This document shows positions 14,428 through 59,636 of a stretch of DNA of 64,000 bases, one piece after another. The notes beneath the pieces are model-generated. The model was not told where the DNA came from. It saw nothing but the letters and a program-made list of their open reading frames with translations, and did no database searches. Made by a program: the position numbers and the translations under genes. Numbering within the stretch: the first letter of the stretch is position 1; each line of letters starts with the position of its first letter. The stretch comes from a virus. The DNA lies in IMG/VR virus record IMGVR_UViG_3300035565_000042, positions 19,394-83,393 of that record; one strand, given 5' to 3'.

Positions 14428-15015
14428 TTAAGTAGATAACTTCGGATTTATGAGTAGATCACTCCGGATTGATTCAAGGTATTCTTTTATGAGTACTTTC
14501 TTGAACTTGATTTTTCGTGGTTTGCCGGTGTTATCAGTGAACTGGTATGCTTTAGGAATGAATGTTTCAGCGAATAACTGGACAGGGATTATCTTCTGTA
14601 CATAGATATGATATTTCTGATATACCCACTTCATATTCAACGGGAATGTTATCGCAGACGTATTGTGAGGCCCTATGAAAGTTCCTTTGACATCTATTAC
14701 TGAAAAGTTGGTTTTTCCCTGAGCAACGAAGATGGCATCTTTGACATTGCACTTCTGGTTGAGATTAAGAAATATCTTTCCTATCCATTCCGGGTTCCAG
14801 TGTATCAGGAAGTCAGCCTGGTACTGATGATCATTGATAATTACCGAGTCTTTGGAAACAGTCTTTGTTTTGAGTATCTTGTCGTAGACATGGACTATTC
14901 GATCACTAAGGATGAAAGGCTTTGGATGGTAGTGCCAATCTGTTATCACTCTATTTTCGCGTAACTCTTCCAGATACCACGAGAAGTAGAGTTCTTCTGA
15001 ACTATCATACTGCAT
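14428..15015 (-). CDS. PD-(D/E)XK nuclease, DUF1064-like
   Basis: YDSSEE, YQADF, VIDVKG. Confidence 0.7.
   Translation of the reverse strand: MQYDSSEELYFSWYLEELRENRVITDWHYHPKPFILSDRIVHVYDKILKTKTVSKDSVIINDHQYQADFLIHWNPEWIGKIFLNLNQKCNVKDAIFVAQGKTNFSVIDVKGTFIGPHNTSAITFPLNMKWVYQKYHIYVQKIIPVQLFAETFIPKAYQFTDNTGKPRKIKFKKVLIKEYLESIRSDLLINPKLST
14431..14463 (-). promoter_or_regulatory. Paired 11-bp boxes, locus 1
   Basis: AGTAGATAACT (14431) and AGTAGATCACT (14453), 22 bp apart, about 45 bp upstream of the DnaA-domain gene. Confidence 0.6.
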
Positions 15016-15091
15016 AAATGAAAATGTTAACGTATCTCGCGATAAAGATATAAAAAAAGACCGATACGTTTTCCATATCGACCCTAATTAA

Positions 15092-15574
15092 TTACTTTAT
15101 TTTTAAAACAAGTTCTTTGACTAATTTGTCAAGAAGTTCGGTAATTTCCTTGCTTCCTTTTGTTAGCTGAGCAATGCTGAGTTGATGGCAAAGGTATTCC
15201 TGTACAGAAGTTGTTCTCCATCCTTTCATGTTTTCAAATCCTTCAGGGACGAGAGCATTAATAGAAGGCATTGGAAATTTACTTGACTTGTACCAGGAAA
15301 GGAATGAACACTGAGTAGATTCGATATCCCTCTGAACTCTCGAATAATACTTGTCAGGTTTTTCTACGGTTATCGCTTTATCGACATCTTTTGCAAGTGC
15401 AATAAGACATGAGAAATTCTGACCGAGAGTTGTTCTGGCAAAATCTTTCTCAAAGTTCAAATACTCTTTCGATTTCAGGATCTTGTCTATTCGCTCCTGT
15501 ACGATAGTGTTGATTCGGTTTGCACCTTCTGTTGCAAGGGTCTTCAGTTCTGTTGGCGTTAATTGTCTGTTCAT
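15092..15574 (-). CDS. Hypothetical protein
   Basis: 160-aa ORF with A-rich leader, followed by a hairpin and T tract. Confidence 0.6.
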   Translation of the reverse strand: MNRQLTPTELKTLATEGANRINTIVQERIDKILKSKEYLNFEKDFARTTLGQNFSCLIALAKDVDKAITVEKPDKYYSRVQRDIESTQCSFLSWYKSSKFPMPSINALVPEGFENMKGWRTTSVQEYLCHQLSIAQLTKGSKEITELLDKLVKELVLKIK

Positions 15575-15608
15575 TTTTTAAGTTTTACTTTGGTTATGAA
15601 ATTGGCTT

Positions 15609-16262
15609 TTATAAGATTCCGTTATCTGCAAAAGAATAGTATTCCTTCTCTGAAACAATGATATGATCCAGAAGCTGAACATCAAATATATTTCCGGCTT
15701 CTTTTACTTTTTGTGTTATCCTGGTATCGGATTCACTCGGGTTAAGATTGCCCGATGGATGGTTATGACAGATTATCAGTCCGGATGCTTTGTATTCAAG
15801 GGCAACACGAAGTATTATCCTGATATCAGTTACTGTCCCATTGATTCCTCCTTGGCTCATTTTTTCTCTGTGAAGAATTTTATTGCTCCTATTTAGGTAA
15901 ACAACCCAGAATTCTTCATGATCGAGATCCTGCAGATATGGTGTAAATAGATCGGCCATGTCTTTAGAACATTTGATCTGGAACCTATCAGGAAATGCCT
16001 GAATGGATCTTCTTTTCATAAATTCTCCGGTTGCGATTAACCTTGTTGCCTGGGAATGAGATAAACCATTCTTTACCATGTCTGCATAACTCAACTTTGT
16101 AACCATGTTAAAATTGAATTCGCAATGGCTATAGATTATTCTGGCGCGTTCAATGGAATTCGTACCTGCCATTATGATAGAAAGAGTTTCAACATCAGAT
16201 AGGGTATTCACTCCTTTGTCTATGATCTTGTAGTTAGGATCATCAAGTCTTTTTTGTTTCAT
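15609..16262 (-). CDS. radC: RadC family JAB/MPN domain protein
   Basis: LSDVETLSII, EEFWVVYLNRSNKI, HNHPSG, SESD, LLDHII. Confidence 0.92.
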   Translation of the reverse strand: MKQKRLDDPNYKIIDKGVNTLSDVETLSIIMAGTNSIERARIIYSHCEFNFNMVTKLSYADMVKNGLSHSQATRLIATGEFMKRRSIQAFPDRFQIKCSKDMADLFTPYLQDLDHEEFWVVYLNRSNKILHREKMSQGGINGTVTDIRIILRVALEYKASGLIICHNHPSGNLNPSESDTRITQKVKEAGNIFDVQLLDHIIVSEKEYYSFADNGIL

Positions 16263-16412
16263 ACGTCTTCCTCCGTTAATATTCCATGTTCGATAAGTTT
16301 TGCATTGAATTCCTTTTCAAGTTCCTTACGAAGAGTAAACATTGCATTCAGAGCTATCTGCTCGTAGGTACTGATGTTTGCTGAGGCTTTCTTTTCGGCC
16401 TCATAGATTTCT

Positions 16413-16715
16413 TTATTTGTCCTCGCCATATACTTTCTTAATTATGGAAAGTGAATGTTCAGCAACCATCTCGTTTATATCAATGATGTTCTTTGATGAA
16501 GCGTCAATGCCAAGATATCTCTCGACATACAGTTCGGCAAGATTTAGCGGAGAACCTACTATTTTGTTCTCCATGTATGACCAGACGAAATATCCTCTTG
16601 GATCAACATTAAGAAGATTGATACAGTCATCCACGAAGTTCTGTGGCAGGGCCGTATCAATACTTCTCTTTTCGTCATCAGCCAATACCAGGTCTATGAG
16701 TTGTCCTTTTGTCAT
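16413..16715 (-). CDS. Hypothetical protein
   Basis: 100-aa ORF in a co-directional run. Confidence 0.5.
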   Translation of the reverse strand: MTKGQLIDLVLADDEKRSIDTALPQNFVDDCINLLNVDPRGYFVWSYMENKIVGSPLNLAELYVERYLGIDASSKNIIDINEMVAEHSLSIIKKVYGEDK

Positions 16716-16913
16716 GGTATCTATATTACAAGTTCAAGCGTTTCTTTATCTCCGTATGCTGATAAATGAAGTTGGGCACAGAATTCCAGAAGCTTGTCGT
16801 AAACATATTCATCCTCACAGATTACCTTTCGGCTCCATATAGTCTCAATAAAATCTTTATCAGACTTTATAGAGTCGACCATTTTTCTTGTTACAAGAAG
16901 TTGTTCTGGCATC

Positions 16914-17171
16914 TCAGATCTGCTTTAATTGTCCTAATACAACTCTGTACGGAACTTTAGTATAGAGTCTGTCCGGAGTCTTTACTTCTTCATTGAAGTA
17001 CTTACCGACATGTAAAGTCGGAACGAGCATCTTGTTGAACTTCTCAATAGGAACATTGTCATAAGCATAGACATTTCCATTAAGGAACTCAACATAAAGT
17101 TTCCTTGTGTCCGGATCGTATCCTACGGATCTGATCATCTTGGACGATACTGGGTGCATTGTGATATTCAT
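16914..17171 (-). CDS. KTSC domain protein
   Basis: VSSKMIRSVGYDPDTRKLYVEF.NG.VYAY.NVP...GKYFN. Confidence 0.88.
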   Translation of the reverse strand: MNITMHPVSSKMIRSVGYDPDTRKLYVEFLNGNVYAYDNVPIEKFNKMLVPTLHVGKYFNEEVKTPDRLYTKVPYRVVLGQLKQI

Positions 17172-17347
17172 TGGTCGTTCTTTTGGGATTCATACTTTGC
17201 CTCTCCTTCCTGTTCACGAAGGTCATCCTTCTCATCTTCTGACAAAGGATTTTCTTCTTCGTTCCATGGAGCTCGCGGATCATTGTCTGAACCGATTGGT
17301 AAATAACCGTCACTCATTTTATTTAAAGTTTGTGAATGGAATAATTG

Positions 17348-18661: not shown

Positions 18662-18899
18662 TTTACTTTTATTAGCTGATATGATCCCCATCCTTTCTCA
18701 AAATGAGTACATTTTTCCTGCTTTGCAAGTTGTTTAGCGCGAGTTATAGCTGCAGTTTTGCTGGAAGCATAGAATGTGATGCATCCTGGATTTGCAAGTA
18801 TTTCGCAACTAAGATCATCTACAGATAAGCATAACTGAGCTATTTTCTGATTATCGGAGTAATCCTTATATACCCCGAAATAATACTTGAGTGTTTTCA

Positions 18900-19705: not shown

Positions 19706-19823
19706 CTTTTTCTTCTGGATTTAATTCAAGATAACCGTAAGGAATAACAACAGGAACACCATTATTTTAGTGCTCAGATTATTTAGCTCTTTTAGTTGTT
19801 CTTGTGTCATCTTATTTCTGTTA

Positions 19824-21204: not shown

Positions 21205-21215
21205 AACTACGATTG

Positions 21216-26961: not shown

Positions 26962-27933
26962 TTAGTTTATTTTAATTCCTGTGATCTCCTCAAATACATT
27001 AGCATCAAAGTTTGGAAGTGCCTTGAGCAGTTTTATATCTTCTTTAGATGCGTCTTTATAGGCTATTGCCCATGCTTCTTTATAACTGACAGTTTTTAAA
27101 TAACCATCAGTCACAAAAGCATCTTTGTTTGACTTCTTCTCATCATCTGTCATATTGCTCCACGAAACCCATGTATCAATATTGATATTATAAATGAAAT
27201 TAGGCTTTGGTGCATTATCCCAAACTTCTCTTTCGCATTCCTTATTGAATACTAAAATAGTATTAGGGGTAATTGAATTAAAGTTCCCTGAGTTTCCGTC
27301 CCCTGAGTTTCCGTTCCCTGAGTTTCCGTTCCCTGAGTTTCTGTACCCTGAGTTTCCGTACCCTGAGTTTCCGTCCCCTGAGTTTCCGTCCCCTGAGTTT
27401 CCGTCCCCTGAGTTTCTGTACCCTGAGTTTCTGTACCCTGAGTTTCTGTTCCCTGAGTTTCCGTTCCCTGAGTTTCTGTACCCTGAGTTTCTGTCCCCTG
27501 AGTTTCCGTACCCTGAGTTTCCGTCCCCTGAGTTTCCGTCCCCTGAGTTTCCGTCCCCTGAGTTTCTGTACCCTGAGTTTCTGTTCCCTGAGTTTCCGTC
27601 CCCTGAGTTTCTGTACCCTGAGTTTCCTATGCCAGAATTAGCAAGAGTTAACATCTCTTCCCACGTCACTTCCCTCACAATGGTTATCTTCTGAGCGCAT
27701 TGCTTATCGCTGTCAAGACCTAATATAATACCCGACAGTATAACTTCAGCAACTTTGTTTTTGGGGTCAAAAGAATAATATGTAAAGCAATCGGATACCT
27801 TCTGACAGGCATGAAATCCACGCTCACACATAGACGGCTCTTCTTTGATTGAATAAGTCTTTCCGGTTTCATATTGAAATCCCCTGTACTTCCAATCAGG
27901 GTCAAATACTTTGTACGCTTTTACTGTTTTCAT
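26962..27933 (-). CDS. Pentapeptide (NSGxx) repeat protein
   Basis: N-terminal YKVF...RGFQYE.GK...CERGFHAC; 23 NSGxx units; C-terminal LPNFDANVFEEITGI. Confidence 0.85.
   Translation of the reverse strand: MKTVKAYKVFDPDWKYRGFQYETGKTYSIKEEPSMCERGFHACQKVSDCFTYYSFDPKNKVAEVILSGIILGLDSDKQCAQKITIVREVTWEEMLTLANSGIGNSGYRNSGDGNSGNRNSGYRNSGDGNSGDGNSGDGNSGYGNSGDRNSGYRNSGNGNSGNRNSGYRNSGYRNSGDGNSGDGNSGDGNSGYGNSGYRNSGNGNSGNGNSGDGNSGNFNSITPNTILVFNKECEREVWDNAPKPNFIYNINIDTWVSWSNMTDDEKKSNKDAFVTDGYLKTVSYKEAWAIAYKDASKEDIKLLKALPNFDANVFEEITGIKIN
27286..27627. repeat. Tandem array of 23 x 15-bp units
   Basis: CCCTGAGTTTC(C/T)GT(C/T/A), repeated without indels. Confidence 0.97.
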
Positions 27934-29719: not shown

Positions 29720-30583
29720 TTACTCCTTGTATATCTTCAGAAGCGTGGTAATGGCATCGAGTTCAGTATTTGCATCATCAATCCTGGTCTCGAGTTCACG
29801 TATCTCTGCCTGAAGCAATTTCTTCCTGAGGGTAAGATCAATGATCTTATGCTGTTCGGCAGGCTTTTCGATCTTCTCGACATTATCTTTAAAGCTGAAC
29901 TTCCTGTCCTTTATTCTTTTGATGTCCGGAGAGTCTATTGTCTCTGTTGAATTCAGATCTTCCATTTCTGCAAGAGTCTTGAGAGGACTCTGCGTTATAT
30001 TCTCCGGGGAATGTTCATTCATGCCATTAGCCTCTGGATCTTTTATTTCAGCAGGTTGTGATGCGTTCTGAATTTCTTCATGAAAACCACCTTTCTTTTC
30101 TATCATTTTCAGAAGAGAGTCTTCATATATCATTCCGGCCAGTTCAGAAGTATCACTTTCATTGGCAAATTCTCTCCAATCGAATGTGTCAGTCTTGATC
30201 ATGAATGATACTGCCATGTCCTTCACTACAGTGTCGGAAAGCAAACTATAGCTCTTTGTTTTCACAAAAGAGATGTATGCCTGGTTTACTTTTATCTTGT
30301 CTGCCATCTCTCTTTGTTTGCATTTCAGGTCATCGACAATCGCAATGATCATCTCAGCCATCATGTCAACAAGTTGTTTCTTTGTCTCAGCATTCTCAAA
30401 AACGAATCTTTCAGTTGTCATAATATTGTGTTTAATTGGTTCCTGTTTTTCAGTCATATCAGTTGCCGGCACCAGTTCATCACTCACACGCCTAACAATG
30501 GGCGCATGGGATGTGTCTGGTGCATATTTACCAAGAAAAGTATTGTAATCCATTACACATGGATCGGTTTCGTCTGGCATCAT
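29720..30583 (-). CDS. Protein with putative XRE-type HTH and C-terminal coiled coil
   Basis: LKCKQREMADKIKVNQAYISFVK fits the HTH_3 pattern. Confidence 0.5.
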   Translation of the reverse strand: MMPDETDPCVMDYNTFLGKYAPDTSHAPIVRRVSDELVPATDMTEKQEPIKHNIMTTERFVFENAETKKQLVDMMAEMIIAIVDDLKCKQREMADKIKVNQAYISFVKTKSYSLLSDTVVKDMAVSFMIKTDTFDWREFANESDTSELAGMIYEDSLLKMIEKKGGFHEEIQNASQPAEIKDPEANGMNEHSPENITQSPLKTLAEMEDLNSTETIDSPDIKRIKDRKFSFKDNVEKIEKPAEQHKIIDLTLRKKLLQAEIRELETRIDDANTELDAITTLLKIYKE

Positions 30584-31415: not shown

Positions 31416-31988
31416 TTAGCCGTCGATATCTGATGTCTCAACAACTGCAACTGCAGCTTTCTTGAACTGGGATATCCTCAGCTGATCCTTGCCTTCATAG
31501 GGCTCATTGGTGACGTTCACAATGAATTCCTTCTTCTCGGCAATGATTGCATCCAGATCTTCGATACCGGAACCTTCTGCCATTCCCAGTGCAGCAAACA
31601 GCTGGTCCATGATGCCTTCGCATACGGCTGTGTTTGCAGGATCAGGAATTCTGTTCAGTTCCTTGGATTTCGGGTTGACAGCGCAGGCATAGCCTGATAC
31701 GTCTGTGAACTTTCCGCTTTCGATCTCTGCAGCTGAGAGCTTGCTGAATGGTACATAACCTTCCAGGTTGAGCCTGTGGGTTAATCCACCTTTACCTTCA
31801 GTGCTGACAACTGTTATTGCAAGCTGTTCGCAAGGGTTGGTGTAGTCCGGAAGAGTCTCTTTGAGGGTTCCGTCATAGTTGTGAAACGAATCAGTCGGCC
31901 TGAATGATACGAGCCTGACTTTGTTGGCACCGGTAGGCAGTTTTGCGAATACCGGGGTCTTGCTCTTGTAAGAAGCGATTTTTGTCAT
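31416..31988 (-). CDS. Putative OB-fold ssDNA-binding protein (DUF669-like), copy A
   Basis: LPTGANKVRLVS...FIVNVTNEPYEGKDQLRISQF with acidic tail; paralog of 34009-34581. Confidence 0.5.
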   Translation of the reverse strand: MTKIASYKSKTPVFAKLPTGANKVRLVSFRPTDSFHNYDGTLKETLPDYTNPCEQLAITVVSTEGKGGLTHRLNLEGYVPFSKLSAAEIESGKFTDVSGYACAVNPKSKELNRIPDPANTAVCEGIMDQLFAALGMAEGSGIEDLDAIIAEKKEFIVNVTNEPYEGKDQLRISQFKKAAVAVVETSDIDG

Positions 31989-32054
31989 TTTCTTTCTTTT
32001 TGGTTAGACAATTTGAAAATACTCATGATAAAATAATTTACTGGCACATATATC

Positions 32055-32112
32055 AAAAAAGACGCGGGGGGATCATTGAGAAGGTTAACTCAATAATCGA
32101 CAACCCGCGTCT
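32055..32112 (-). terminator. Long hairpin + U tract upstream of copy A
   Basis: AGACGCGGG...CCCGCGTCT outer stem, inner ATTGAG/CTCAAT stem, followed by T6 on the minus strand. Confidence 0.7.
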
Positions 32113-32401
32113 AAAATAAGTCATTGTCTCTGGTCCTCAGGAACGTCTTTCTGGCATTGTTCAGATACCACATCGGACGTGACCTGTCTCACCATTGTGC
32201 ATAACACTTCCTCTGCATTGAATTTATGTACCGTTAACGTTAACGGAACTGCCGTTAAATCTTTATCGGTTGACCGTGTCTTGGTCTATTCCGGTATTTC
32301 ACCGGTGTGAAAGTCTAAACAGGCAATTAAACCTGAAATTATGCGACAATAACTCATCGGTTAATTAACCAATAATCGGGAATAAAATAATTTCTTTGCT
32401 A

Positions 32402-32563
32402 TTACTTTCCTCTCTTTTTATGAGGAAACCTGGCACGCATGTTATTTTCTCTTTTACTCTCCTGAGCTGTCATATACTCATGAAGGTCTTTAGCGCCAGA
32501 TGGCGTGAATATATGTCTGCTTTTCAGAAAAGCAAACGTATCCTTGTTACTGAGCTTTGCCAT
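32402..32563 (-). CDS. Small hypothetical protein (53 aa, below ORF-track cutoff)
   Basis: MAKLSNKDTFAFLKSRHIFTPSG...KKRGK*, directly after the 32568 gene. Confidence 0.45.
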   Translation of the reverse strand: MAKLSNKDTFAFLKSRHIFTPSGAKDLHEYMTAQESKRENNMRARFPHKKRGK

Positions 32564-32567
32564 GATA

Positions 32568-32909
32568 TTATTTGTCTTTTATTAAAAGTTTACAAACTGG
32601 TGAATTCACATACCCTGTCCTCACATACCTGACAGGATCCGATATTATCCCTGCCTCAACAAGTACTGCCAGCATCCCTTCATTCTCACTGTAGTCCTTG
32701 ATGATTACTTCATCATCTGTCATCATCTCTGCCGGCAGGTTTATAGTTGCCACAGCTATATCCTCCATTCCCGGATATGCTATATAGTCATCCTCCCGTA
32801 TGGTATTGGCATTTACCAGGACTATTGCCTTCCTTCCATTGCCATACTCCCTGAGCTGTACATTACACAGCCACTGCCTGAACTGTACCTTCTTCCCTGT
32901 TTCCACCAT
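32568..32909 (-). CDS. DUF4313-like protein
   Basis: ATINLP...IIKDYSENEGML..L..AGII...GYV..PVC. Confidence 0.6.
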   Translation of the reverse strand: MVETGKKVQFRQWLCNVQLREYGNGRKAIVLVNANTIREDDYIAYPGMEDIAVATINLPAEMMTDDEVIIKDYSENEGMLAVLVEAGIISDPVRYVRTGYVNSPVCKLLIKDK

Positions 32910-33120
32910 GACTCAGACCCTCGCATGTTTGTTACTGTTCCTTACATACTTCACTACTGTTATAACAAAGTATGCCACTATCAGTACTGCAGAAGTGATC
33001 TCAATCACTCCCCCTGCATTGCAAGCTATTGTTTCCATCTTTTTCTTCTCTTTGGTTAGACTTTATTATTACTCTATTCATCAATTAACAAAGATAAAAT
33101 AATTACTCTGATATCCTCCC

Positions 33121-33280
33121 AGTTATCTACTCATAGAGTTATCTACTCCATCCACCTGAGTCATCTACTCGATAAAAAAGGGTTCTCTCTGCACTCTTTC
33201 CTTATATTGTATATAATATATATAATCTTTAAAGAATAATATATATAATATTATAAAAAGAAAAGAAAGATAAAGAATAT
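33121..33280. other. Putative replication origin: three 11-bp boxes + AT-rich tract
   Basis: AGTTATCTACT at 33121 and 33137, AGTCATCTACT at 33159, then about 75 bp almost purely A/T with TAATATATATAAT twice. Confidence 0.5.
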
Positions 33281-33539
33281 ACCTAACCTTCCTTCAATCT
33301 TTATATCCCCTTTCAGTAATATTCCATCAATATCCAATCAGTATGTCCCTCAATGACTCCCTTATTACCTCATATACTATCCATTGTTATCCTTTACTAT
33401 CAGTAGTCATCCATAGTCACCCATACCAATCAATCCCCAATACCCCCTCTATCGAACTACTGTCATGGCCACGGGCTTGTTAACATTGAATGTTTATAAC
33501 AATGGAATAGTAATATGTGATGAATGATTATCTTTGTAG

Positions 33540-33640
33540 TCACTCAGATTCATTCTACGAATCATTTCTAACGTATCTGTCCCTGGTAGGAAGTGGCATG
33601 CAAGGCAAGGCTTATGGAATACCAGGGACTCTTCATTTCA
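33540..33640 (+). ncRNA. Candidate small structured RNA
   Basis: Follows a TATCTTTG -7 box (33529-33536); GATTC/GAATC hairpin and a 10-bp GTCCCTGGTA/TACCAGGGAC stem; no ORF. Confidence 0.35.
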
Positions 33641-33838
33641 TCCCACAGCTATTCTCAGAGGGTTTCAGGGCATTTTGATATGAGAGTGGTATGTAGAGAT
33701 GTCTGTATGGTTATCGTGTCTTAAACACCCTCCGTTAACGTACACGATTTAACGGAACATTAACGGTAAAACTATCATTTGACAGGGTAAATACCATTTG
33801 ACGGGCAGGCAACGCTATCATATGACAGGGTGAATATT

Positions 33839-33934
33839 AAAAAAAGAGAGATCATCCAGGGATACGGAATACTTCTTACCGTACCAGCTATCTTTCGCAC
33901 CCATTCTCATAGGTAGATAGACTAATGATCTCTC
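33839..33934 (-). ncRNA. Candidate branched structured RNA ending in a U tract
   Basis: GAGAGATCAT/ATGATCTCTC closing stem enclosing two hairpins, one capped by a GAGA tetraloop. Confidence 0.4.
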
Positions 33935-33954
33935 AAAAATATAATAACTGTATT

Positions 33955-33988
33955 AAAAAAAGAAAGAGGCTTTATTACCTCTCTCTTA
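33955..33988 (-). terminator. Intrinsic terminator after SSB-like copy B
   Basis: Minus strand AGAGAGAGGU-AAUAAA-GCCUCUUUCU-U tract. Confidence 0.75.
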
Positions 33989-34008
33989 AACTGATTACCC
34001 TTCGGCGA

Positions 34009-34581
34009 TTAGCTATCGATGTCTGAAGTCTCGGCTTTCTTGACTGCGACCTTGCCAAACCTCGAGATACGAAGCTGATCACGTCCCTCGAATGGTTCAT
34101 TGGTCACATTGACCGTGAAAGCTTTCTTTTCAGCGATGGCATTGTCGAGTGCCTCGATGCCACTGCCCTCAGGCATTCCGAGTGCTGAAAAGAACTGGTC
34201 GAGAATACCCTCGCAAACCTCGGTGTTCTTGTTATCGATGAGCCTGACCAGCTTGTTGGTTTTGCTGTTGAGCATGCAGGCATAGCCATTGACGTCGATG
34301 TACTCACCGGACTCAATCTGCTTTGCAGACAGTTTTGAGAACGGAACATAACCCTCGAGATTCAGCCTGTGTGTCAGACCGCCGTTGCCGGCAACACTGA
34401 CGACTGTGATAGCGAGTTGTTCGCATGGGTTCTCAAACTCCGGAAGGTTTTCTTTCACCGTGCCGTCGTAGTTGTGAAAGCTGTCTGTGTCCTTGTAGGA
34501 AACAAGACGAACTTCATTCTGACCGAGTGGAAGTTTCATGAAGACCGGAGTCTTCGACTTGTAAGAACTGATTTTTGACAT
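34009..34581 (-). CDS. Putative OB-fold ssDNA-binding protein (DUF669-like), copy B
   Basis: 190 aa, gap-free alignment to copy A, about 72% identical by hand count. Confidence 0.5.
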   Translation of the reverse strand: MSKISSYKSKTPVFMKLPLGQNEVRLVSYKDTDSFHNYDGTVKENLPEFENPCEQLAITVVSVAGNGGLTHRLNLEGYVPFSKLSAKQIESGEYIDVNGYACMLNSKTNKLVRLIDNKNTEVCEGILDQFFSALGMPEGSGIEALDNAIAEKKAFTVNVTNEPFEGRDQLRISRFGKVAVKKAETSDIDS

Positions 34582-34662
34582 TGTGTCAGCCCTCCTAAGG
34601 CTGTGTTTTTGGTTAGTACTAAAGAAAAAATGTCAAGTACAAAATAACTTCTGTACAATATC

Positions 34663-34705
34663 AAAAAATAAGTTGAGAAGGGTTCGATACCCTTTCTCAA
34701 CTTAT
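34663..34705 (-). terminator. Long hairpin + U tract upstream of copy B
   Basis: ATAAGTTGAGAAGGG-TTCGATA-CCCTTTCTCAACTTAT preceded by an A tract on +. Confidence 0.7.
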
Positions 34706-34713
34706 AATTCATC

Positions 34714-34926
34714 TCATGATGTCTTATCATTCATCATCGATACCAGGCATAGTCTTCCCTTTGCATACTGGCTGTCATTCCTGTGCTCTCTTAGCCACCA
34801 TTGGCAAAGACGTTTGGGCTTATCATACATCTCAACTACATTCTCGCTGTATGTACCATAAACCCAAACTACCTTGTAGTTGCTGTTAACAACTACTTGG
34901 CTCTTGATCTTCCCAGTGGAAACCAT
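34714..34926 (-). CDS. Small hypothetical protein
   Basis: 70-aa ORF ending at the hairpin; start uncertain. Confidence 0.4.
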   Translation of the reverse strand: MVSTGKIKSQVVVNSNYKVVWVYGTYSENVVEMYDKPKRLCQWWLREHRNDSQYAKGRLCLVSMMNDKTS

Positions 34927-35084
34927 AATGAGTGAAGATCAGAGATGTGCTTGTCTATTCTCTCTTCTACCATCTTCTTGTCTTCGTAGTTGCGAAGAAT
35001 CTTAACGGTAGCAACGATGTCCTTGCGTTGCGCTCTGCGCTTGGCAATAGGACTGTGAACTGCATAAATGTGTGTCATAATCAT
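34893..35084 (-). CDS. Small hypothetical protein; first gene of the minus arm
   Basis: Preceded by a TAACCAA leader. Confidence 0.4.
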   Translation of the reverse strand: MIMTHIYAVHSPIAKRRAQRKDIVATVKILRNYEDKKMVEERIDKHISDLHSLWFPLGRSRAK

Positions 35085-35265
35085 GATTATTATTGGTTAA
35101 CAGAGATATAATAACTTTCATCCTGTAAGCATTCTTTTTTGGGGCCCCCTTTTGGCAATCAAACACGCCCCCCTGGTCGGTTTCTGTCATAACCACATCA
35201 AAAATGCCAATATTAGGTCAGGGATGCGTTTTTACACAAAAAAAATAATAGGGATGTTAATAAGT

Positions 35266-35298
35266 AGTTATCTACTTGTGATTGCGGAGTGGATAACT
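35266..35298. promoter_or_regulatory. Paired 11-bp boxes, locus 3 (inverted)
   Basis: AGTTATCTACT (35266) and AGTGGATAACT (35288), 22 bp apart, in the divergent intergenic region. Confidence 0.6.
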
Positions 35299-35330
35299 TG
35301 TAATATATTCGCGAGAAGAAAAGGAAGACA

Positions 35331-35717
35331 ATGGAAGAGAAGGAAAGGAAGTTTGTATATCCAGCAGTAAGGATCAATCAGGTATGGTTGGACAGGGACC
35401 ACATGATACTAAGAATGGAGACATGGTTAAGGAAGAAAGAGAGAGGGTTCTTGGGTATTTGGAAAGGGAAGTGGTATCTTCAGAGGTTTTGGAGTGAGTA
35501 TATCATAACTGATGGTACAGATGGGATAATAGCAAGTATGAGTCAGTTTCATGCTACGGTATATAAGTCTGTCATATGTGGGAGAGTTGACAGGAAGATA
35601 GTATTCCCGGGGATTGATGGTCCGGCAAGGAGATTGTTTGAAGATGATCCGGAGCAGATAGATGAGAGGGAAAGGATTGGTGATGGTTTAAGCGGGAGGA
35701 AACATGGCAACAAATAA
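35331..35717 (+). CDS. Hypothetical protein; first gene of the plus arm
   Basis: 128-aa ORF, purine-rich coding strand. Confidence 0.55.
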   Translation: MEEKERKFVYPAVRINQVWLDRDHMILRMETWLRKKERGFLGIWKGKWYLQRFWSEYIITDGTDGIIASMSQFHATVYKSVICGRVDRKIVFPGIDGPARRLFEDDPEQIDERERIGDGLSGRKHGNK

Positions 35718-35958
35718 GTATCATTTGACGGTATATATTAGGCCTGACATACAGAAGAAGTTGAGGTACCTGTGGTTACTGAGCAGGAAGGATGGTCTGG
35801 GGAATGGTGTTGTAGGTAGGAAGAAACTCAAGTTTGGTGAGTTTATTGAGACGGTGATGGAGGAATACCTGGCGAAGAGAAAGGGGATACTGGACAAGTT
35901 GCTTAGTGTGGAGCATGAGGTACTGAGTAGGGAAGAGGAAACTACAAAAGTAGAATAA
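35704..35958 (+). CDS. Putative ribbon-helix-helix DNA-binding protein
   Basis: HLTVYIRPDIQKKLRYL...FGEFIETVMEEYL has the RHH strand-helix-helix pattern. Confidence 0.5.
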   Translation: MATNKYHLTVYIRPDIQKKLRYLWLLSRKDGLGNGVVGRKKLKFGEFIETVMEEYLAKRKGILDKLLSVEHEVLSREEETTKVE

Positions 35959-35999
35959 AAATTATTTTACTTTCGTGGATATTAAAACTGAAAAAAGAT

Positions 36000-36365
36000 T
36001 TGTTTATGGGAATAGATAATCAACAGATGGGAAGTAAGAAGGCAGAGTTATATTATGTAAAGACCAGGGGGATCAGGTATACCGAGCAGGAAGCATCAGA
36101 TCATGGCATCAAGAGAGTGTACAACTACACCAGCGAACTTGAGTTCATGAATGATGAAGACATAGATGGCTGGGTAAAGGGATTGTATGATCCGCGGCAT
36201 AGTGAAGCTGTACTGGTAGAGAGCGCCATAAAGACGATCAATGGAGTTCCCTTGTACATTATGACCTGTATAGTATTCATGTCCATTGAGGGATGTAATC
36301 TGTATTATCTGAGATACCAGAGTGATTTCAAGGAGAACAAGGGATTTGCACATTTACTGAACTAA
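36000..36365 (+). CDS. Hypothetical protein
   Basis: 121-aa ORF. Confidence 0.5.
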   Translation: MFMGIDNQQMGSKKAELYYVKTRGIRYTEQEASDHGIKRVYNYTSELEFMNDEDIDGWVKGLYDPRHSEAVLVESAIKTINGVPLYIMTCIVFMSIEGCNLYYLRYQSDFKENKGFAHLLN

Positions 36366-36394
36366 TTTTTTATATAAACTTAACAATTGTAGTT

Positions 36395-36688
36395 ATGAGT
36401 GAAGAGAAGGAAATTGCACCAAGTAAACCGATATTATTGGAACTGGACTCTATTCGTAAGGATCTGTACGAACTTTCAGATTGCAGATCATCTTTGGAAC
36501 AGATACTTGATCGTTTGCAATCGAATGATAATTTAAACAATCAGTTAAAAGAGGTACCTGACACTGCTAAAGAGAAGGACTGGGATCAGATGTCTATAAA
36601 CGAGAAAGTAACATCTCTCAGAAAAATTTCATCCATACTCTCTCATAAGTTTGGTGAGCTTCACCAGCGGATAGATAGCGCGATTTGA
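36395..36688 (+). CDS. Hypothetical coiled-coil protein
   Basis: 97-aa ORF. Confidence 0.55.
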   Translation: MSEEKEIAPSKPILLELDSIRKDLYELSDCRSSLEQILDRLQSNDNLNNQLKEVPDTAKEKDWDQMSINEKVTSLRKISSILSHKFGELHQRIDSAI

Positions 36689-36734
36689 TCAGTAGCAAGA
36701 AAATTATTATTCTTTCGGGATATATCGAATTTGA

Positions 36735-36847
36735 TAAAGCATACTGTTTTTGGTTAGACAGCAGTCAGGGGCCCGGCACTAAGGTAGCGAAGTGAGACAT
36801 TGGTTGACGACAACATATTAAAGTCCGGGCCACTGACATATTTTTTG
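36735..36847 (+). ncRNA. Candidate antisense sRNA
   Basis: Intergenic; CUGUUU-UUGGUU-AGACAG hairpin, then a branched GUCAGGGGCCCGG/CCGGGCCACUGAC stem and U tract. Confidence 0.45.
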
Positions 36848-36912
36848 ATTACAAGAAAAAAAGTTTAACTTTGATCCTCGATTGATCGATCGTTAAACTA
36901 AACTTAAGCGTC

Positions 36913-37089
36913 ATGACAAAGAAAAAAGATCCAGGCGAACTAAAGAGGAAACCGAAAGGTTCAGTAGTTCCGGTGCCAAAGAAAGAAACCAGTGCTTCTA
37001 AAACAAAGAAAGTTTCAGTATCAGCACCTAATCCTGATGGTATCCTTACGCCAAAGAACAAGGCTCATGTACATACCTTGAGTGAGTAG
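36913..37089 (+). CDS. Small Lys/Pro-rich basic protein (58 aa, missed by ORF track)
   Basis: MTKKKDPGELKRKPKGSVVPVPKKETSASKTKKV...; TAACTTTG -7 box at 36866 and terminator at 37103. Confidence 0.6.
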   Translation: MTKKKDPGELKRKPKGSVVPVPKKETSASKTKKVSVSAPNPDGILTPKNKAHVHTLSE

Positions 37090-37102
37090 CAATGCGTTGA
37101 AC

Positions 37103-37140
37103 AGCCCGGAAAGAGTATATTCTGCCGGGCTTATTTTTTT
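37103..37140 (+). terminator. Intrinsic terminator
   Basis: AGCCCGG...CCGGGCT followed by T tract. Confidence 0.8.
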
Positions 37141-45291: not shown

Positions 45292-46800
45292 ATGAAAATT
45301 AAGATTTATCATGGTAGCGTCAGCGAAGGAGATGCACAGGAGTATCATCTTGTACAGAACCACCTTCTGGATCCTACAGCCAATATCGACAGGGTAATCA
45401 TGTACGCTGAACAGCGTCATCTTATGACCCTTCTCACTTCAGGTGCAAGAGACTCACGTTATACCGCACCTGGATGGACGCCTAAAAATGGTGATGCCAT
45501 TACCACCCATATCCAGCCGATTCCTCAGGCAGAAATGGTTTCTTCAAATGCATGGTCATACAAGATCATGGGAAGGATCCAGAAGTCTGTTGAAGTGCTT
45601 GGAAGCGCAATCGTTGGAACGCAACTGAACTCATCGAGTATCAAGGGTTGCGTTTTCAGTCTGTATCTCAAGGACAACTATCTTACCCCGGGAATGAACG
45701 CTGTTTTCTATAATGGAGAACATGCAAGGGTTATGAAACGCCCGATCGGATACTCAGACCGGTATCTGTATACTTTCGAAACTTATCCTGGCAAAGACTT
45801 TTCATGGAACACATGGATCGGCACTCAGGTAGGTCGCAAGTCAATCTTCGGTGGTTATACCACATTCGGAGAAAGGTCAAGGAGAGGTTATGGAATGTTC
45901 CACTATCCGGATCGTTTCATCCAGCATACAACCAAACAGAGGAAATCTATTTCTCTGTCTGGTGATGTCAACGCCAATGAAGTTATCTGGTATGAACTCG
46001 ACAACAAGAAGGGATTTGTCTATGAGGCAGAGGCCCAGATGAGAGCTCAGTTCCTGCTTGAAGATGAATACCGTCTATGGTGGGGAGAATCAACCATGAG
46101 AGACCAGTATGGCAACTTACTCACTCGCGCCTGCATGCAGGACGAAGAAGGTAACGACATCGTAGCAGGTGATGGTTTCATTCCTCAGATCAAGGGTGCT
46201 AATGACATGGACTCATCCAATGCAGATGGTACATTCACCTATGATGACCTTCGCGATATGGTCAAACAGCTGAAGAAAAAGAAAAACAGAATCTCTGGGA
46301 ACACATATATCTGTGTTACTGGTGCTGATGGTATGGCAAACGCACATGATGTTTGTTCAGGCCGTTATGCAGCAGGAACCCCGATAGTCCAGGTTGTTCA
46401 GCAGAATGATCAGGCCGGTGGTGCAGAACCTGTAACCGGTTACAACTTCAAGAGGTTGAACATAGCTGGTGAGCAGATCATCTTCTGTGAGAACCCGATG
46501 ATGGATGACGAGCAGAAATTCCCGAGAAGGCTTTCAAATGGTGCTCTTGCATCAAGTAACACTGTTTACTTCCTCGACATGGATACCGATGATCGTGGAA
46601 GGATGAACGTCGAGATCAGGGCAAGAGGACGCGCTGGTGTCAACCGTAATATCGTTTACCTCTGGGAAAATGGTATGACTGGTGAAGGCACTGCACAGAA
46701 TCCTGTTGATGCCAAGGCATTCCATATGCTGAAGGAAACACTTCTGGCTGTTTACAACACCAGATCCTGCGGTATACTGAAACCGGCAGCAACTGCCTAA
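45292..46800 (+). CDS. Major capsid protein (crAss-like HK97 fold)
   Basis: 502 aa, position after portal/scaffold, WSYKIMG, E...WWG, GDGFIPQI, TG..GM; followed by a terminator. Confidence 0.85.
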   Translation: MKIKIYHGSVSEGDAQEYHLVQNHLLDPTANIDRVIMYAEQRHLMTLLTSGARDSRYTAPGWTPKNGDAITTHIQPIPQAEMVSSNAWSYKIMGRIQKSVEVLGSAIVGTQLNSSSIKGCVFSLYLKDNYLTPGMNAVFYNGEHARVMKRPIGYSDRYLYTFETYPGKDFSWNTWIGTQVGRKSIFGGYTTFGERSRRGYGMFHYPDRFIQHTTKQRKSISLSGDVNANEVIWYELDNKKGFVYEAEAQMRAQFLLEDEYRLWWGESTMRDQYGNLLTRACMQDEEGNDIVAGDGFIPQIKGANDMDSSNADGTFTYDDLRDMVKQLKKKKNRISGNTYICVTGADGMANAHDVCSGRYAAGTPIVQVVQQNDQAGGAEPVTGYNFKRLNIAGEQIIFCENPMMDDEQKFPRRLSNGALASSNTVYFLDMDTDDRGRMNVEIRARGRAGVNRNIVYLWENGMTGEGTAQNPVDAKAFHMLKETLLAVYNTRSCGILKPAATA

Positions 46801-54142: not shown

Positions 54143-54156
54143 GATTAATCTTTAAC

Positions 54157-54648: not shown

Positions 54649-54649
54649 T

Positions 54650-55096: not shown

Positions 55097-55107
55097 TTCT
55101 ATTCGAT

Positions 55108-55356
55108 ATGCAAATTCTTAATACAAAGTACTCAGTAAATACATCGAATTGGACGAAGAGGACTCCGCCATATCTGAAGTTCTTTTGCGATTTTCTTCTA
55201 TTCTTAAGTCTGGTTGTAGGAGTACTTCCAGAGATACCTACTCCGATAGGTAAATGGATCCTATTTGGAGGAGTAGTTGCAAAACTACTCTCGAACTTCA
55301 TCTCTGATCATTTGCCTGCAACTGCACAACCAACCAATCCGGAGGTAACACCATGA
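55108..55356 (+). CDS. Putative holin
   Basis: 82 aa, TP motif followed by two hydrophobic segments. Confidence 0.55.
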   Translation: MQILNTKYSVNTSNWTKRTPPYLKFFCDFLLFLSLVVGVLPEIPTPIGKWILFGGVVAKLLSNFISDHLPATAQPTNPEVTP

Positions 55357-56090: not shown

Positions 56091-56106
56091 CTTAAAAAAT
56101 CATACA

Positions 56107-57495: not shown

Positions 57496-57526
57496 TTTTC
57501 TTTTTTATTAACTTATATTTTTTATC

Positions 57527-57856
57527 ATGGAACTTAGTATTTTACAAAGGATAATACTGCAATCAGTATTACCGCCAGAAGGTGACTATGTCACAATTAA
57601 GATTATCCGGGATCTCAAAGCCGAACTTGGGTTCAGTGAAGAAGAGATCAAGAAGTTTAACATCACCCAGGAAGGAACAAAAATATTCTGGGATATGAAG
57701 TCGGCAGAAGGGAAAGAAGGATTGAAAAAGATTAACATTGGCCCAAAAGCTCTCGATATCATTGTTAAGTCTTTAAAAGACCTGAATGCCCAGAAGAAGA
57801 TAAACGAACAGAATGCAGACCTCTACGAATTATTCGTAGTAAAGAAAGGGAAATAA
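57527..57856 (+). CDS. Small protein, possible fibre chaperone
   Basis: LPPEGDY...L.FSEEE motif following a fibre gene. Confidence 0.5.
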   Translation: MELSILQRIILQSVLPPEGDYVTIKIIRDLKAELGFSEEEIKKFNITQEGTKIFWDMKSAEGKEGLKKINIGPKALDIIVKSLKDLNAQKKINEQNADLYELFVVKKGK

Positions 57857-57859
57857 ATC

Positions 57860-58564
57860 ATGACTGGAGAAGAATTGGTGTACGATATTTTGGAGATCAA
57901 GAATCTTGTTGAGGATGACAGTGATACAGATGAACTCTGGTTACTGAATAAAATCAACATGTACCGGTCTTTATTCATTCGCCAGGAGTATGAACTTACA
58001 CGGGCAATCAATCCGGCATGGCTCCAGCGTATGCACAAAACAACTGTCACGAAGGTCAATTCTTCTGACGATCCTGATATTGATTTTACGAGTATCGATA
58101 ATCTCGGGAAGGTAATAATACCAGTTCTTGTTGCTCTTCCCGAGGATATTGGACTTAATCGTGTTACCGGATCAGCTGGCATATCACAATTCCAACCTAT
58201 CGACTTCAATACTCTCATACTAAAGATTGAATGTAATGAAGAAAGAATGGGTGATTATGGATATTGTGCCAGAGTAGGGAATGCTTTATATCTCTTTCCA
58301 TTTGTCATGGAGATGCAGGCATTACTTATTCCGGAGGATCCATTTGCTATTCAGGTAAACGATGGTGGCACATTACGTGACCGGACAATTACTGATGATT
58401 ATCCAGTGAGTATGGATATGGCACAGAAAATTGTCATGGAGATCCTAACCAAAGACATGAAGATAAACGAACAAAGCATAGCTGACATAGTGAATGATTC
58501 ACAGTCAGAACTTAAAATATTGCAGAGTGGAAACAGCGGTCAACAGCAAACAGCTCAAGTATGA
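57860..58564 (+). CDS. crAss-like tail ring protein
   Basis: MT..ELVYDIL...DDS, YR...IRQ, EDP, DYPVS.DM. Confidence 0.65.
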   Translation: MTGEELVYDILEIKNLVEDDSDTDELWLLNKINMYRSLFIRQEYELTRAINPAWLQRMHKTTVTKVNSSDDPDIDFTSIDNLGKVIIPVLVALPEDIGLNRVTGSAGISQFQPIDFNTLILKIECNEERMGDYGYCARVGNALYLFPFVMEMQALLIPEDPFAIQVNDGGTLRDRTITDDYPVSMDMAQKIVMEILTKDMKINEQSIADIVNDSQSELKILQSGNSGQQQTAQV

Positions 58565-58565
58565 G

Positions 58566-58925
58566 ATGGTGGGTCTTATGCGTAATAGTACGATTAGTCC
58601 TGTTAAAATCAGTTACCGTACAATAAACTTTATATTGTCACGGTTCTTTCATTATTCAATCCAGGCACTCATTAATGGTTATCCAATCGTAGTCTGCAGA
58701 TACTTCAGATTCAAACTTGTTTACGCATTATATTCATTCCTACCTCATCAGGTTCGCGAACATATGAAATACTCTCAGAAAGCATTTGGTTATGCATTCT
58801 ACGTAGTCTGTCAGTCACGACATGCTGATAAGTTTGGCTATACCTTTCGCACGTCAAGAAAACTTCTCGATACTATTCATGAACATACCGAAACGGATGT
58901 TGTCTATAAACTAATGAAGAAATGA
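58566..58925 (+). CDS. IHF/HU-like small protein in the tail module
   Basis: ISYRTINFILSRFFHYSIQALING pattern; position typical of crAss-like IHF-like genes. Confidence 0.4.
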   Translation: MVGLMRNSTISPVKISYRTINFILSRFFHYSIQALINGYPIVVCRYFRFKLVYALYSFLPHQVREHMKYSQKAFGYAFYVVCQSRHADKFGYTFRTSRKLLDTIHEHTETDVVYKLMKK

Positions 58926-59608
58926 AGAAATACTCAATAAGACAGGCAGTACTCAATGCAATAGACGAGACTGATGATAGTATCGGCCGGCATATGAATA
59001 CTCTTCTTAAGTGGGCTAAATACTGTGAGACTTGTATAGGAACCCTGAATGGTTATCCTGTCCGCGCTGAGCTCTTTACTGTTCATGCAGCGAAGATAAC
59101 ACTTCCGGACAGTTGCTATAAAGTCTTATGTCTTATCCCGGGAGACTACACCAGCGAAGTAAATCTTCGTTTCAAAGATCTCAATAACATTGTCATCAAT
59201 GTTGATAACAGGGATGGTGAGTTTGCATCAACACCGTCACTTGAATTTGTCTGGAGTGATACATCCTGGCCGCGGGTTCCATCAATGCTCTGGGAAGAAG
59301 TAGGAAATGAACTTTCTATAGTCGATCAGTATAATGATGAAACAGTAACACTTGTTTATCAGTATATACAGGTTGATTCACGTGGATACTGGCTCGTAAA
59401 TGAAAGTCATCTTGAAGCAATAAAGAAATACCTGATATACCAGGTCGCAAGGAAGTTTCTCAACAACAGTTTCAAAAGCAGTAAACTAACTCGCGCGATA
59501 GATTTTCAGGTTGTTCAGGAATACAAAAAAGATTACAGTATTGCCATACGCAATGCCAGGGCCCTTGATAACGAAGAGAATCCGGTCGACTCGCTTAACA
59601 AGAAGTAG
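58922..59608 (+). CDS. Tail tubular/ring protein (P22 gp4-like)
   Basis: ITLP.S, V.LVY....DS.GY.LV, EAI..Y; directly before the stabilisation protein. Confidence 0.65.
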   Translation: MKKYSIRQAVLNAIDETDDSIGRHMNTLLKWAKYCETCIGTLNGYPVRAELFTVHAAKITLPDSCYKVLCLIPGDYTSEVNLRFKDLNNIVINVDNRDGEFASTPSLEFVWSDTSWPRVPSMLWEEVGNELSIVDQYNDETVTLVYQYIQVDSRGYWLVNESHLEAIKKYLIYQVARKFLNNSFKSSKLTRAIDFQVVQEYKKDYSIAIRNARALDNEENPVDSLNKK

Positions 59609-59636
59609 ATAACTCAGCATACGCAAGTAGATAACT
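59604..59636 (-). promoter_or_regulatory. Paired 11-bp boxes, locus 4
   Basis: AGTAGATAACT at 59604 and 59626, 22 bp apart, filling the gap before the 59638 ATG. Confidence 0.6.

Follow-up and report, generated by a model that had tools for sequence, protein, structure and literature searches.

Nine paired 11-bp sites at four control points of a crAss-like phage, with a stand-alone DnaA domain IV protein as candidate binder

The 64,000-nucleotide stretch of DNA analysed here, called the window throughout, corresponds to bases 19394-83393 of the complete 83,393-bp virus record IMGVR_UViG_3300035565_000042 (genome G000; 39.6% G+C). G000 has 123-bp direct terminal repeats. Two open reading frames (ORFs) identify it as a crAss-like phage: the one at 45292-46800 resembles the Crassvirus major capsid protein (PF23898, E 4.6e-15) and the one at 59638-63531 the Crassvirus muzzle protein (PF25731, E 1.5e-80). 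The latter had been described as a tail stabiliser in an earlier note on this DNA, and this assignment has to be corrected. We focus on an 11-bp word, AGTNATCYACT, which recurs in pairs at four loci of the window, and on a gene beside the first pair, which encodes a stand-alone DnaA domain IV (DnaA-IV). Each copy of the word is referred to as a box. The boxes and the features around them are the following, in the order of the window.

4033-35084, minus strand: genes of the replication and early arm
13969-14385, minus strand: gene of P0001, a stand-alone DnaA domain IV protein of 138 amino acids (aa), sharing 14 nt with the beginning of the helicase gene
14403-14426, minus strand: imperfect promoter-like motif AAAAATAATTATCTTATTATTGAC, between the box pair and the DnaA-IV ATG, recognised by eye in comparison with the ATTATTYYAY set
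14431-14441, minus strand: box AGTTATCTACT, overlapping the last codons of the conserved 195-aa ORF 14428-15015
14453-14463, minus strand: box AGTGATCTACT, 22 bp from the 14431 box
33094-33103, minus strand: perfect promoter-like motif ATTATTTTAT, 17 nt from the triple cluster and facing the 113-aa gene 32568-32909
33121-33131, plus strand: box AGTTATCTACT, third copy of the cluster, 16 bp ahead of the 33137 box
33137-33147, plus strand: box AGTTATCTACT
33159-33169, plus strand: box AGTCATCTACT, 22 bp after 33137
33201-33290: AT-rich tract (86.7% A+T), beginning 31 nt beyond the third box; a possible unwinding element
35266-35276, plus strand: box AGTTATCTACT, within the 246-nt gap between the divergent gene arms
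35288-35298, minus strand: box AGTTATCCACT, inverted partner of 35266, 22 bp from it centre to centre; the ATG at 35331 is 32 nt further on
from 35331 onward, plus strand: genes of the structural arm
59604-59614, minus strand: box AGTTATCTACT, containing the TAG stop codon of the ring-like protein gene 58922-59608
59626-59636, minus strand: box AGTTATCTACT, ending 1 nt before the muzzle gene ATG at 59638

The earlier note had reported these 11-mers in pairs at 22-bp spacing, at four loci and with six identical copies, and had called for a scan against shuffled sequence. The motif scan recovered every element of that description. AGTNATCYACT has nine matches in the window where 0.38 are expected (standard deviation 0.63, largest value 3), and none of 100 dinucleotide-preserving shuffles of the window reached nine. 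Six of the nine boxes are the identical word AGTTATCTACT. Allowing one mismatch to this word returns the same nine sites and none extra (1.52 expected), and allowing two gives 27 sites against 22.2 expected, a number reached by 23 of the 100 shuffles; as this last count is at the level of chance, the boxes have no halo of weaker sites. The whole of G000 holds only these nine, with none in its first 19.4 kb, and the backwards control of the motif gave 0 matches. Three of the four pairs are direct and one is inverted (35266/35288), and in all four the starts are exactly 22 bp apart. With each spacing free to take any value in the range 12-60 bp, the chance of obtaining the same one four times is about 8.5e-6. 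The boxes are thus non-random and placed at control points. They had been presented as a genome-wide system; the boxes are real, and the term overstates four loci.

Variation among the nine sites, which make up the complete set with at most one mismatch, is confined to positions 4 and 8. In 9/9 boxes the outer triplets, AGT and ACT, complement each other; the inner pairs 4/8 and 5/7 do so in 0/9, and position 12 is a pyrimidine in all nine. The 11-mer is a partial pseudo-dyad around an ATC centre that is asymmetric and never varies. Judged from their sequence, the nine boxes form a real operator-like or iteron-like system, for which we can propose a candidate binder only.

At the first locus, 45 nt lie between the 14431 box and the DnaA-IV ATG (46 nt from the last base of the box to the A). 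The 11-nt spacers at 14431/14453 match at 8 of 11 positions, and the pair is therefore a true 22-bp tandem unit. At the second, the tract at 33201-33290, whose AT-richness had been pointed out before, contains the most AT-rich 80-nt stretch of the entire window. The third pair is, as described previously, inverted and situated at the divergence of the two arms, and the fourth fills the 29-nt junction between the ring-like protein and muzzle genes.

The promoter-like motif, [AG]TTATT[CT][CT][AG][CT], has 23 matches in the window, about 11 of which lie 17-185 nt upstream of start codons on the same strand. It is unlike the TAnnTTTG element of Bacteroidetes. Such motifs adjoin two of the four box loci (14431/14453 and 33121-33169), while a third locus precedes the operon 35331-35958. 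The promoters beside the boxes are predicted ones, and the sites also head the first operon of the structural arm. Scans for sigma-70 promoters and for terminators around the boxes did not rise above shuffled sequence. Examples of the motif on the minus strand are found at 8451, 12031, 17336, 22568, 29708, 32028, 32382, 33094, and 34639, and on the plus strand at 35961 and 50212; the copy at 32382 is exceptional in lying 394 nt from a start codon.

The protein P0001 matches PF08299 (Bac_DnaA_C) with 69 bits for a cut-off of 31.5 (E 3.6e-19), its residues 16-88 covering profile positions 2-69 of 69. It also matches the PDB DnaA domain IV chain 1J1V (E 1.1e-9). An AlphaFold2 model computed with 16 homologues has a predicted local distance difference test (pLDDT) score of 88.2 and shows two additional C-terminal helices, at 97-117 and 119-136. 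The best Foldseek matches of this model are 3PVP, 1J1V (template modelling (TM) score by target 0.87, root-mean-square deviation 2.0 Å), and 8BTG; 3PVP and 1J1V are DnaA DNA-binding domains bound to DNA. Profile match and predicted structure thus agree that P0001 is a genuine stand-alone DnaA domain IV with a confident fold, which bears out the earlier description of a phage-encoded stand-alone DnaA DNA-binding domain. PF08299 is the only family in the 138 aa, AAA+ domain III and domain I being absent. Because it has no AAA+ module, P0001 is not a DnaA initiator, and without AAA+ or domain I it cannot form the initiator filament. Its full-length relatives are separate Bacteroidales DnaA proteins of 471-487 aa.

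In Escherichia coli DnaA, the base-specific residues are R399, P423, D433, H434, T435, and H439 (PMC2533591, PMC7561715). Four of the six (R399, D433, H434, and H439) are kept in P0001 as R43, D77, H78, and H83, while A67 and A79 stand in place of P423 and T435 in the alignment with 1J1V. A shifted specificity had been suggested for this phage mini-DnaA. Its contact residues are simply those of the Bacteroidales chromosomal DnaA: P0021, a Bacteroidales DnaA and the best named long relative of P0001, is the same at all six aligned contact positions and reads SLATIG...RDHATVLH. The closest similarity of the phage domain is to Bacteroidales DnaA (52% identity). We examined 31 Bacteroidales dnaA loci (L159-L189), three of which gave no ORF by our filter and one no readable motif; the DHAT signature is present in 25 of the 27 readable ones, the others having DHTT and DHST, respectively. 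It is also found in 16/16 aligned members of the stand-alone DnaA-IV family. As Bacteroidales DnaA carries the same two alanines, P0001 looks like a DnaA of the host lineage, not like a phage-specific variant.

The main variant of the box core, TTATCTACT, matches the DnaA box TTATCCACA at 7/9 positions. Mismatches to TTATCCACA number one at one site, two at six sites, and three at two sites, so the previous statement that the core is 1-2 mismatches from the DnaA box stands for seven sites and fails for two. About 1.2% of the window's own 11-mers contain a 9-mer within two mismatches of TTATCCACA, a figure that has to be read knowing that the word may have been compared with more than one known motif before the likeness was noticed. 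As so few 11-mers do as well, the resemblance is unlikely to be pure chance.

A search based on the capsid protein identified 23 related loci with 71-87% identity, including the three complete genomes G001, G002, and G003. Each of these encodes a DnaA-IV homologue (E 3.9e-22 to 5.5e-9). In 4/4 complete genomes of the clade, the DnaA-IV gene lies between the helicase gene and the 195-aa gene, and this conserved synteny makes it a stable part of the clade's replication module. In the window, the minus-strand arm also encodes a PcfJ-like protein, along with the following two proteins.

9435-11351, minus (early) arm: Toprim protein
12462-13982, minus strand: superfamily 2 helicase (ResIII, Helicase_C), adjoining the DnaA-IV gene in 4/4 complete genomes

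The best non-self homologue of P0001 has 59% identity. A tblastn search of GenBank phages with P0001 gave 17 records, each with less than 60% identity to P0001 and less than 80% coverage of it, and a blastn search of the same phages with window 32000-36500 gave no match. Searches for related loci with P0001 alone and with P0018, a small protein discussed below, returned no relative.

The canonical box TTATCCACA, with at most one mismatch, is not enriched in G000-G003. Another word, TTATCAAC, is about 2.4-fold enriched in the three relatives (15, 13, and 13 copies in G001, G002, and G003 against about 5.4-6.1 expected, two of the 15 copies in G001 being duplicates through terminal redundancy) and is not enriched in G000 (4 against 5.2 expected). 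These expectations come from first-order shuffles that leave codon usage uncontrolled. TTATCAAC might be the relatives' version of the box, although its copies are dispersed and mostly intragenic. The most AT-rich windows of G001-G003 contain no box cluster.

Several features of the relatives may be mentioned here. In G002, an inverted pair of TTATCAACAA lies directly upstream of the 195-aa/DnaA-IV/helicase genes. The DnaA-IV homologues of G002 (63241-63894, 217 aa) and G003 (36543-37130, 195 aa) are longer than P0001 and have a C-terminal, zinc-ribbon-like CxxC...CxxC motif that G000 and G001 lack. The G001 record (94,144 bp) repeats itself at an offset of 89,191 (e.g., positions 3000 and 92191), a terminal redundancy of about 4.9 kb; its unique genome is therefore about 89.2 kb, and the G001 counts include duplicates. 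The most AT-rich window of G001 holds its only unique perfect TTATCCACA, followed by a promoter-like word, and AAATTATTCTT, which resembles the promoter-like motif, is among the most over-represented words of that genome.

Stand-alone DnaA-IV genes are, as far as sequence matches tell, common in phages: 181 IMG/VR stretches encode a DnaA-IV relative according to a family-alignment search. At the 80 loci kept, the ORFs measure 50-249 aa and are therefore stand-alone. Clustering at 70% identity gave 54 DnaA-IV clusters, 50 of them with at least 330 nt upstream. At least four exact copies of one 8-mer within the 300 nt upstream were observed at three of these 50 non-redundant loci, compared with 0.41% of 5,341 control windows taken from the same loci. 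L208 has 10 copies of AAATGTAC(A/G) upstream of its DnaA-IV gene, L194 has 8 copies of (T/C)AACTACA, and L199 has yTACTACA at least 5 times; at L195, TAACTACG forms an inverted pair. These repeats all share an nTAC core with ATCTACT. Among words that are not purely A/T, CTAC leads the 4-mers of the DnaA-IV upstream windows (89 copies, 63.9 expected) and ACTAC the 5-mers (40 copies, 19.3 expected). There is thus modest but independent support for the view that some phage DnaA-IV genes adjoin repeat arrays of a related word. These arrays favour a link between this protein family and the boxes, and so does the placement of the first pair and of the triple cluster immediately upstream of promoter-like motifs.

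A small protein of this type is known from Caulobacter crescentus. GafY (also HdaB or CCNA_01111) is a stand-alone DnaA domain IV homologue that binds and activates the promoters of its own operon, of a phage-like gene transfer agent (GTA) cluster, and of about 18 other targets (PMC9632790, PMC11150451). In our view, a small phage regulator probably docks at the boxes, the most likely candidate binder being P0001. In the full form of this proposal, P0001 would bind the nine 11-mers as a GafY-like, autoregulating regulator and would occupy the members of a pair together; we adopt it tentatively, at a nearly even chance of being right. The nine 11-mers would be high-affinity sites for one sequence-specific phage-encoded DNA-binding protein. 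Sites 22 bp apart, two helical turns, would present the same DNA face and be occupied together. Like GafY, P0001 would bind beside promoters, including that of its own gene, hence autoregulation, and would time, by activation or repression, the transcription of the replication operon and of the 113-aa gene at the large non-coding region. It would likewise time the first operon of the structural arm and the read-through into the muzzle gene. The triple cluster next to the most AT-rich tract may additionally mark a replication origin, where P0001 could share sites with host DnaA or compete for them, given that its contact residues are those of Bacteroidales DnaA.

If P0001 is the binder, a purely transcriptional role is what we would on balance expect, and a role that includes the origin is the somewhat less probable of the two. 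The transcriptional role is the more economical, because GafY activates transcription, promoter-like motifs are found next to two of the four loci, and an operon follows a third. Origin function at the triple cluster is possible on its anatomy: the three boxes at 33121-33169 and the adjoining AT-rich element reproduce an oriC- or iteron-like layout. The cumulative GC skew has its minimum in two 1-kb bins at 32.6-34.6 kb of the window, a position confounded by its coincidence with the switch of coding strand.

Several observations weigh against P0001 as the binder. The first is the fate of the word in related phages, a comparison that the earlier note had proposed: the DnaA-IV gene is kept, and the motif is at control level, with 1, 1, and 0 matches in G001, G002, and G003 against 1, 2, and 0 for the backwards control. 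No comparable multi-locus 22-bp paired motif was found in these three genomes, nor do such boxes lie upstream of the nearest DnaA-IV homologues (51-59% identity). This conservation test is weak, because the relatives found come no closer than 87% identity in the capsid protein or 59% in DnaA-IV, and fast-evolving operator words could not have been followed over such distances. The 80 viral DnaA-IV loci hold the G000 word three times, as single copies in 1.18 Mb, which is the chance level. The CTAC/ACTAC enrichment and the array signal are carried by 3/50 loci; five of the 50 are in the top 5% of their own locus for that enrichment, where 2.5 are expected.

The second set of objections concerns the form of the boxes. 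The DnaA-box consensus is quoted as TTWTNCACA in PMC7561715, and 0/9 boxes fit it; by this published consensus, the nine sites are not DnaA boxes, bearing in mind that the Bacteroidales box may differ from it. Where the phage word varies, at box positions 2 and 6, TTWTNCACA is fixed, and where TTWTNCACA is degenerate, at box positions 3 and 5, the phage word is invariant. Its box position 9 is T, not A. The dyad-symmetric ends and a 22-bp spacing that is independent of orientation suit a dimer per box better than a monomeric DnaA-IV head. Finally, the orientation of the boxes relative to the promoter-like motif differs between the 14431 and 33121 loci, and no promoter-like motif is found at the 59604 locus.

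A serious competitor of P0001 is encoded beside the inverted pair. The 35266/35288 pair precedes a two-gene operon specific to this genome.

35331-35717, plus strand: gene of P0017, 128 aa, no family found; missing from G001-G003
35704-35958, plus strand: gene of P0018, 84 aa, an orphan with a possible ribbon-helix-helix (RHH) fold and a rival binder; missing from G001-G003

The boxes might be the operators of this operon (35331-35958), with P0018, alone or with P0017, binding each box as a dimer and with cooperation between dimers 22 bp apart. Autoregulation would then depend on the inverted pair, which lies 32-65 nt upstream, and the protein would switch three further targets: the DnaA-IV/helicase operon, the gene of 113 aa, and the muzzle gene. 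The motif and the P0017/P0018 genes have the same phyletic pattern, present in G000 and missing from G001-G003. The complementary ends of all nine boxes, with free positions 4 and 8 as mirror positions, and the constancy of the spacing whatever the box orientation would suit a dimeric binder; on the other hand, the centre of the box is invariant and asymmetric, its positions 4/8 and 5/7 being never complementary. P0018 begins with a strand-like segment followed by helices, and its Atlas model is nearest to CopG and RHH clusters (TM 0.55-0.62), with CopG, RHH_1, RHH_3, and RHH_5 clusters among its neighbours at TM 0.47-0.62. However, it has no Pfam match, which makes the RHH assignment a lead only, and its AlphaFold2 model is poor (pLDDT 57), with no usable strand. 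An exhaustive search of 1.84 billion representatives found one relative at 35% identity and a word-indexed search none. The DnaA-box resemblance and the nTAC arrays before the DnaA-IV genes of other phages would also be left unexplained. We regard binding by P0018 as rather unlikely, yet as a possible and serious rival to binding by P0001, between which computation cannot decide.

The boxes could also be read by another phage protein, such as the 638-aa Toprim primase(-helicase), the 287-aa helix-turn-helix (HTH)-like protein encoded at 29720-30583, or an unrecognised factor, the likeness to the DnaA box being coincidental. Many G000 proteins are without an assigned family, and 29720-30583 is also specific to this genome. 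Nevertheless, the HTH match of 29720-30583 is marginal (phrog_2339, E 4.9e-4), and no positional link was seen between these candidate genes and any box, so that we find this explanation improbable.

Host DnaA itself has to be considered as the binder. The triple cluster and the AT-rich tract would then be an oriC-like origin that recruits the host replisome, and the phage DnaA-IV protein would only modulate the process or compete. Family A or B DNA polymerases (PF00476, PF00136) were not detected in G000, G001, G002, or G003, and these phages therefore have to make use of the host replisome. According to PMC7886860, such a polymerase is also lacking in the epsilon group and in some of the environmental crAss-like phages. 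The closeness of P0001 to Bacteroidales DnaA, the three boxes beside the most AT-rich stretch of the window, and the GC-skew minimum at 32.6-34.6 kb also agree with host DnaA. Conversely, that minimum is confounded by the strand switch, three of the four loci are not origin-like, and the misfit of all nine boxes to TTWTNCACA applies here too, with the reservation that the consensus may not be that of the host. Moreover, the box word is rare near Bacteroidales dnaA: T[TGC]ATC[CT]ACT occurs four times, in 4/28 loci, and the enriched words are different. TTATTAACA is found nine times in seven loci within 600 nt upstream of dnaA against 1.24 expected, the maximum over 50 shuffles being 5; TGATAATC/GATTATCA is present in nine loci, GATTATCA being enriched upstream. 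TTATCCACA has 0 occurrences in the 28 loci with 1.5 kb of flank on each side. The Bacteroidales DnaA box may thus differ from the textbook box, a weak lead. Altogether, binding of the boxes by host DnaA seems quite improbable.

Lastly, the boxes might not be operators of any protein. They would then be variant promoter elements akin to ARTTATTYYAY (AGTTATCTACTT is similar to some promoter-like copies, for example AGTTATTCCACTT) or relics of a repeat element like the dispersed Bacteroides arrays (AGTAGATCACT recurs with a 22-bp period at 16 loci of a Bacteroides metagenome-assembled genome (MAG) and one metagenome). We consider this very improbable, as the orientation of the boxes is unrelated to gene direction (antisense at 59604, opposite to the neighbours at 33121), two boxes lie within coding sequence, and the phage and Bacteroides elements have no DNA similarity beyond the word itself.

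The arrays just mentioned came from a search for the paired pattern in other DNA, which returned 0 stretches from IMG/VR, 107 from genome contigs (89 read), and 51 from metagenome contigs. None of those read is similar to the phage by blastn or tblastn. They fall into three groups: a conserved 22-bp repeat of Collinsella, 11-bp satellites beside unrelated ORFs, and dispersed Bacteroides intergenic arrays. The Bacteroides element consists of four to six tandem 22-bp units, each with AGTAGATCACT, the variant present at 14453. The 16 loci read (L100 and L111 in the Bacteroides MAG G006, L271-L317 in metagenome contigs) adjoin unrelated housekeeping genes such as aspS, lepA, and nusA-infB. In G006 the motif has 28 matches against 7 for the control, and DnaA is the one protein of this genome that belongs to Bac_DnaA_C. 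In Collinsella and other Coriobacteriaceae (L052 and about 80 further loci), AGTAGATTACT occurs twice, 22 bp apart, within a longer repeat of the CAGTAGTGCC type; the locus is conserved, with one copy per genome. The satellites are arrays of 5 to 28 copies of AGTAGATAACT (L274, L282, L283, L285, L289, L305, L316, and L060), present in environmental contigs and one Woesearchaeota MAG with no DnaA-IV-like ORF alongside.

With P0001 as the candidate binder, the system would work most like GafY and its promoter sites, or like an ordinary repressor-operator set if P0018 binds. Comparable systems are GafY with GafZ and IHF, and GafA of Rhodobacter capsulatus. As for GafY, boxes precede the protein's own gene, head the structural arm, and adjoin promoter-like motifs. 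In contrast, GafY belongs to an alphaproteobacterial GTA, whereas G000 is a crAss-like phage of lytic type. The kinship of the two proteins was compared at the level of their shared Pfam family, and binding in the phage is a prediction. The paired 22-bp architecture is a feature of the phage, and the accessible portions of the GafY papers make no mention of it. With DnaA at oriC (1J1V, 3PVP), the phage shares the fold of the protein, four of its six contact residues, and a box cluster beside an AT-rich tract. It differs in the invariant flanking AG and final T of the boxes, most of which are at predicted promoters or gene junctions and not at an origin. Iteron origins, as for plasmid Rep iterons, lambda O, and P4 alpha with ori/crr, consist of direct repeats in helical phase beside replication genes and an AT-rich stretch. 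The arrays of five to ten repeats before the DnaA-IV genes of three other phages are similar to these; G000, unlike them, has two or three copies per locus, four loci including a late-gene junction, and one inverted pair. RHH proteins such as Arc, Mnt, CopG, and omega bind short pseudo-symmetric sites as dimers that cooperate along one DNA face, and autoregulate. The 22-bp centre spacing of the phage boxes appears to be wider than in these classic cases, and, unlike these proteins, P0018 has an RHH fold only as a candidate. The distinctive feature is that a crAss-like phage has nine sharply defined sites at four control points, paired at a distance of exactly two helical turns.

The crAss-like phages are among the most abundant phages of Bacteroidota, and to our knowledge almost nothing is known about the timing of replication and late transcription in them. 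In the literature searched on crAss-like phages and Crassvirales, exclusive of supplementary gene tables, we found no description of a DnaA-domain gene or of such a set of boxes; in the part of PMC7963479 available to us, dnaA is merely a marker gene. Nine sites and two or three candidate binders in a complete genome could yield the first regulator-operator pair of the group. Were P0001 the binder, the range of GafY-type regulators, described until now from alphaproteobacterial GTAs, would be widened to true phages from a different phylum. The result would also be relevant to how phages that lack a recognisable DNA polymerase of family A or B interact with the host initiator. Were it the orphan P0018, this would be an ordinary phage repressor-operator system. 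A bolder version, which we think unlikely, is that a crAss-like clade in which no family A or B DNA polymerase was found captured the DnaA head of its Bacteroidales host as an origin-recognition and gene-timing protein, which would read nTAC-type paired boxes, occupy or compete for host DnaA sites, and couple replication and late genes to the host initiator. Viral stand-alone DnaA-IV genes, some of them with upstream repeat arrays of their own, would then be a widespread, unstudied class of phage regulators, and the dispersed Bacteroides 22-bp arrays would be host sites of the same recognition type.

The window contains no tRNA gene and no Rfam family within its 64 kb. The ORF 26962-27933 (minus strand) includes, at 27287-27631, 23 tandem copies of a 15-bp unit, GAAACTCAGGG plus four variable bases; this unit is a five-residue coding repeat of the 323-aa protein, which is missing from G001-G003. 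Two genes for 190-aa paralogues (31416-31988 and 34009-34581) flank the large non-coding region. Both match the same single gene in each relative, and the duplication is therefore specific to G000. Within that region, at 33720-33840, CTATCATTTGACAGGGT is present in three copies spaced 19 and 24 bp, together with three copies of TTAACGG.

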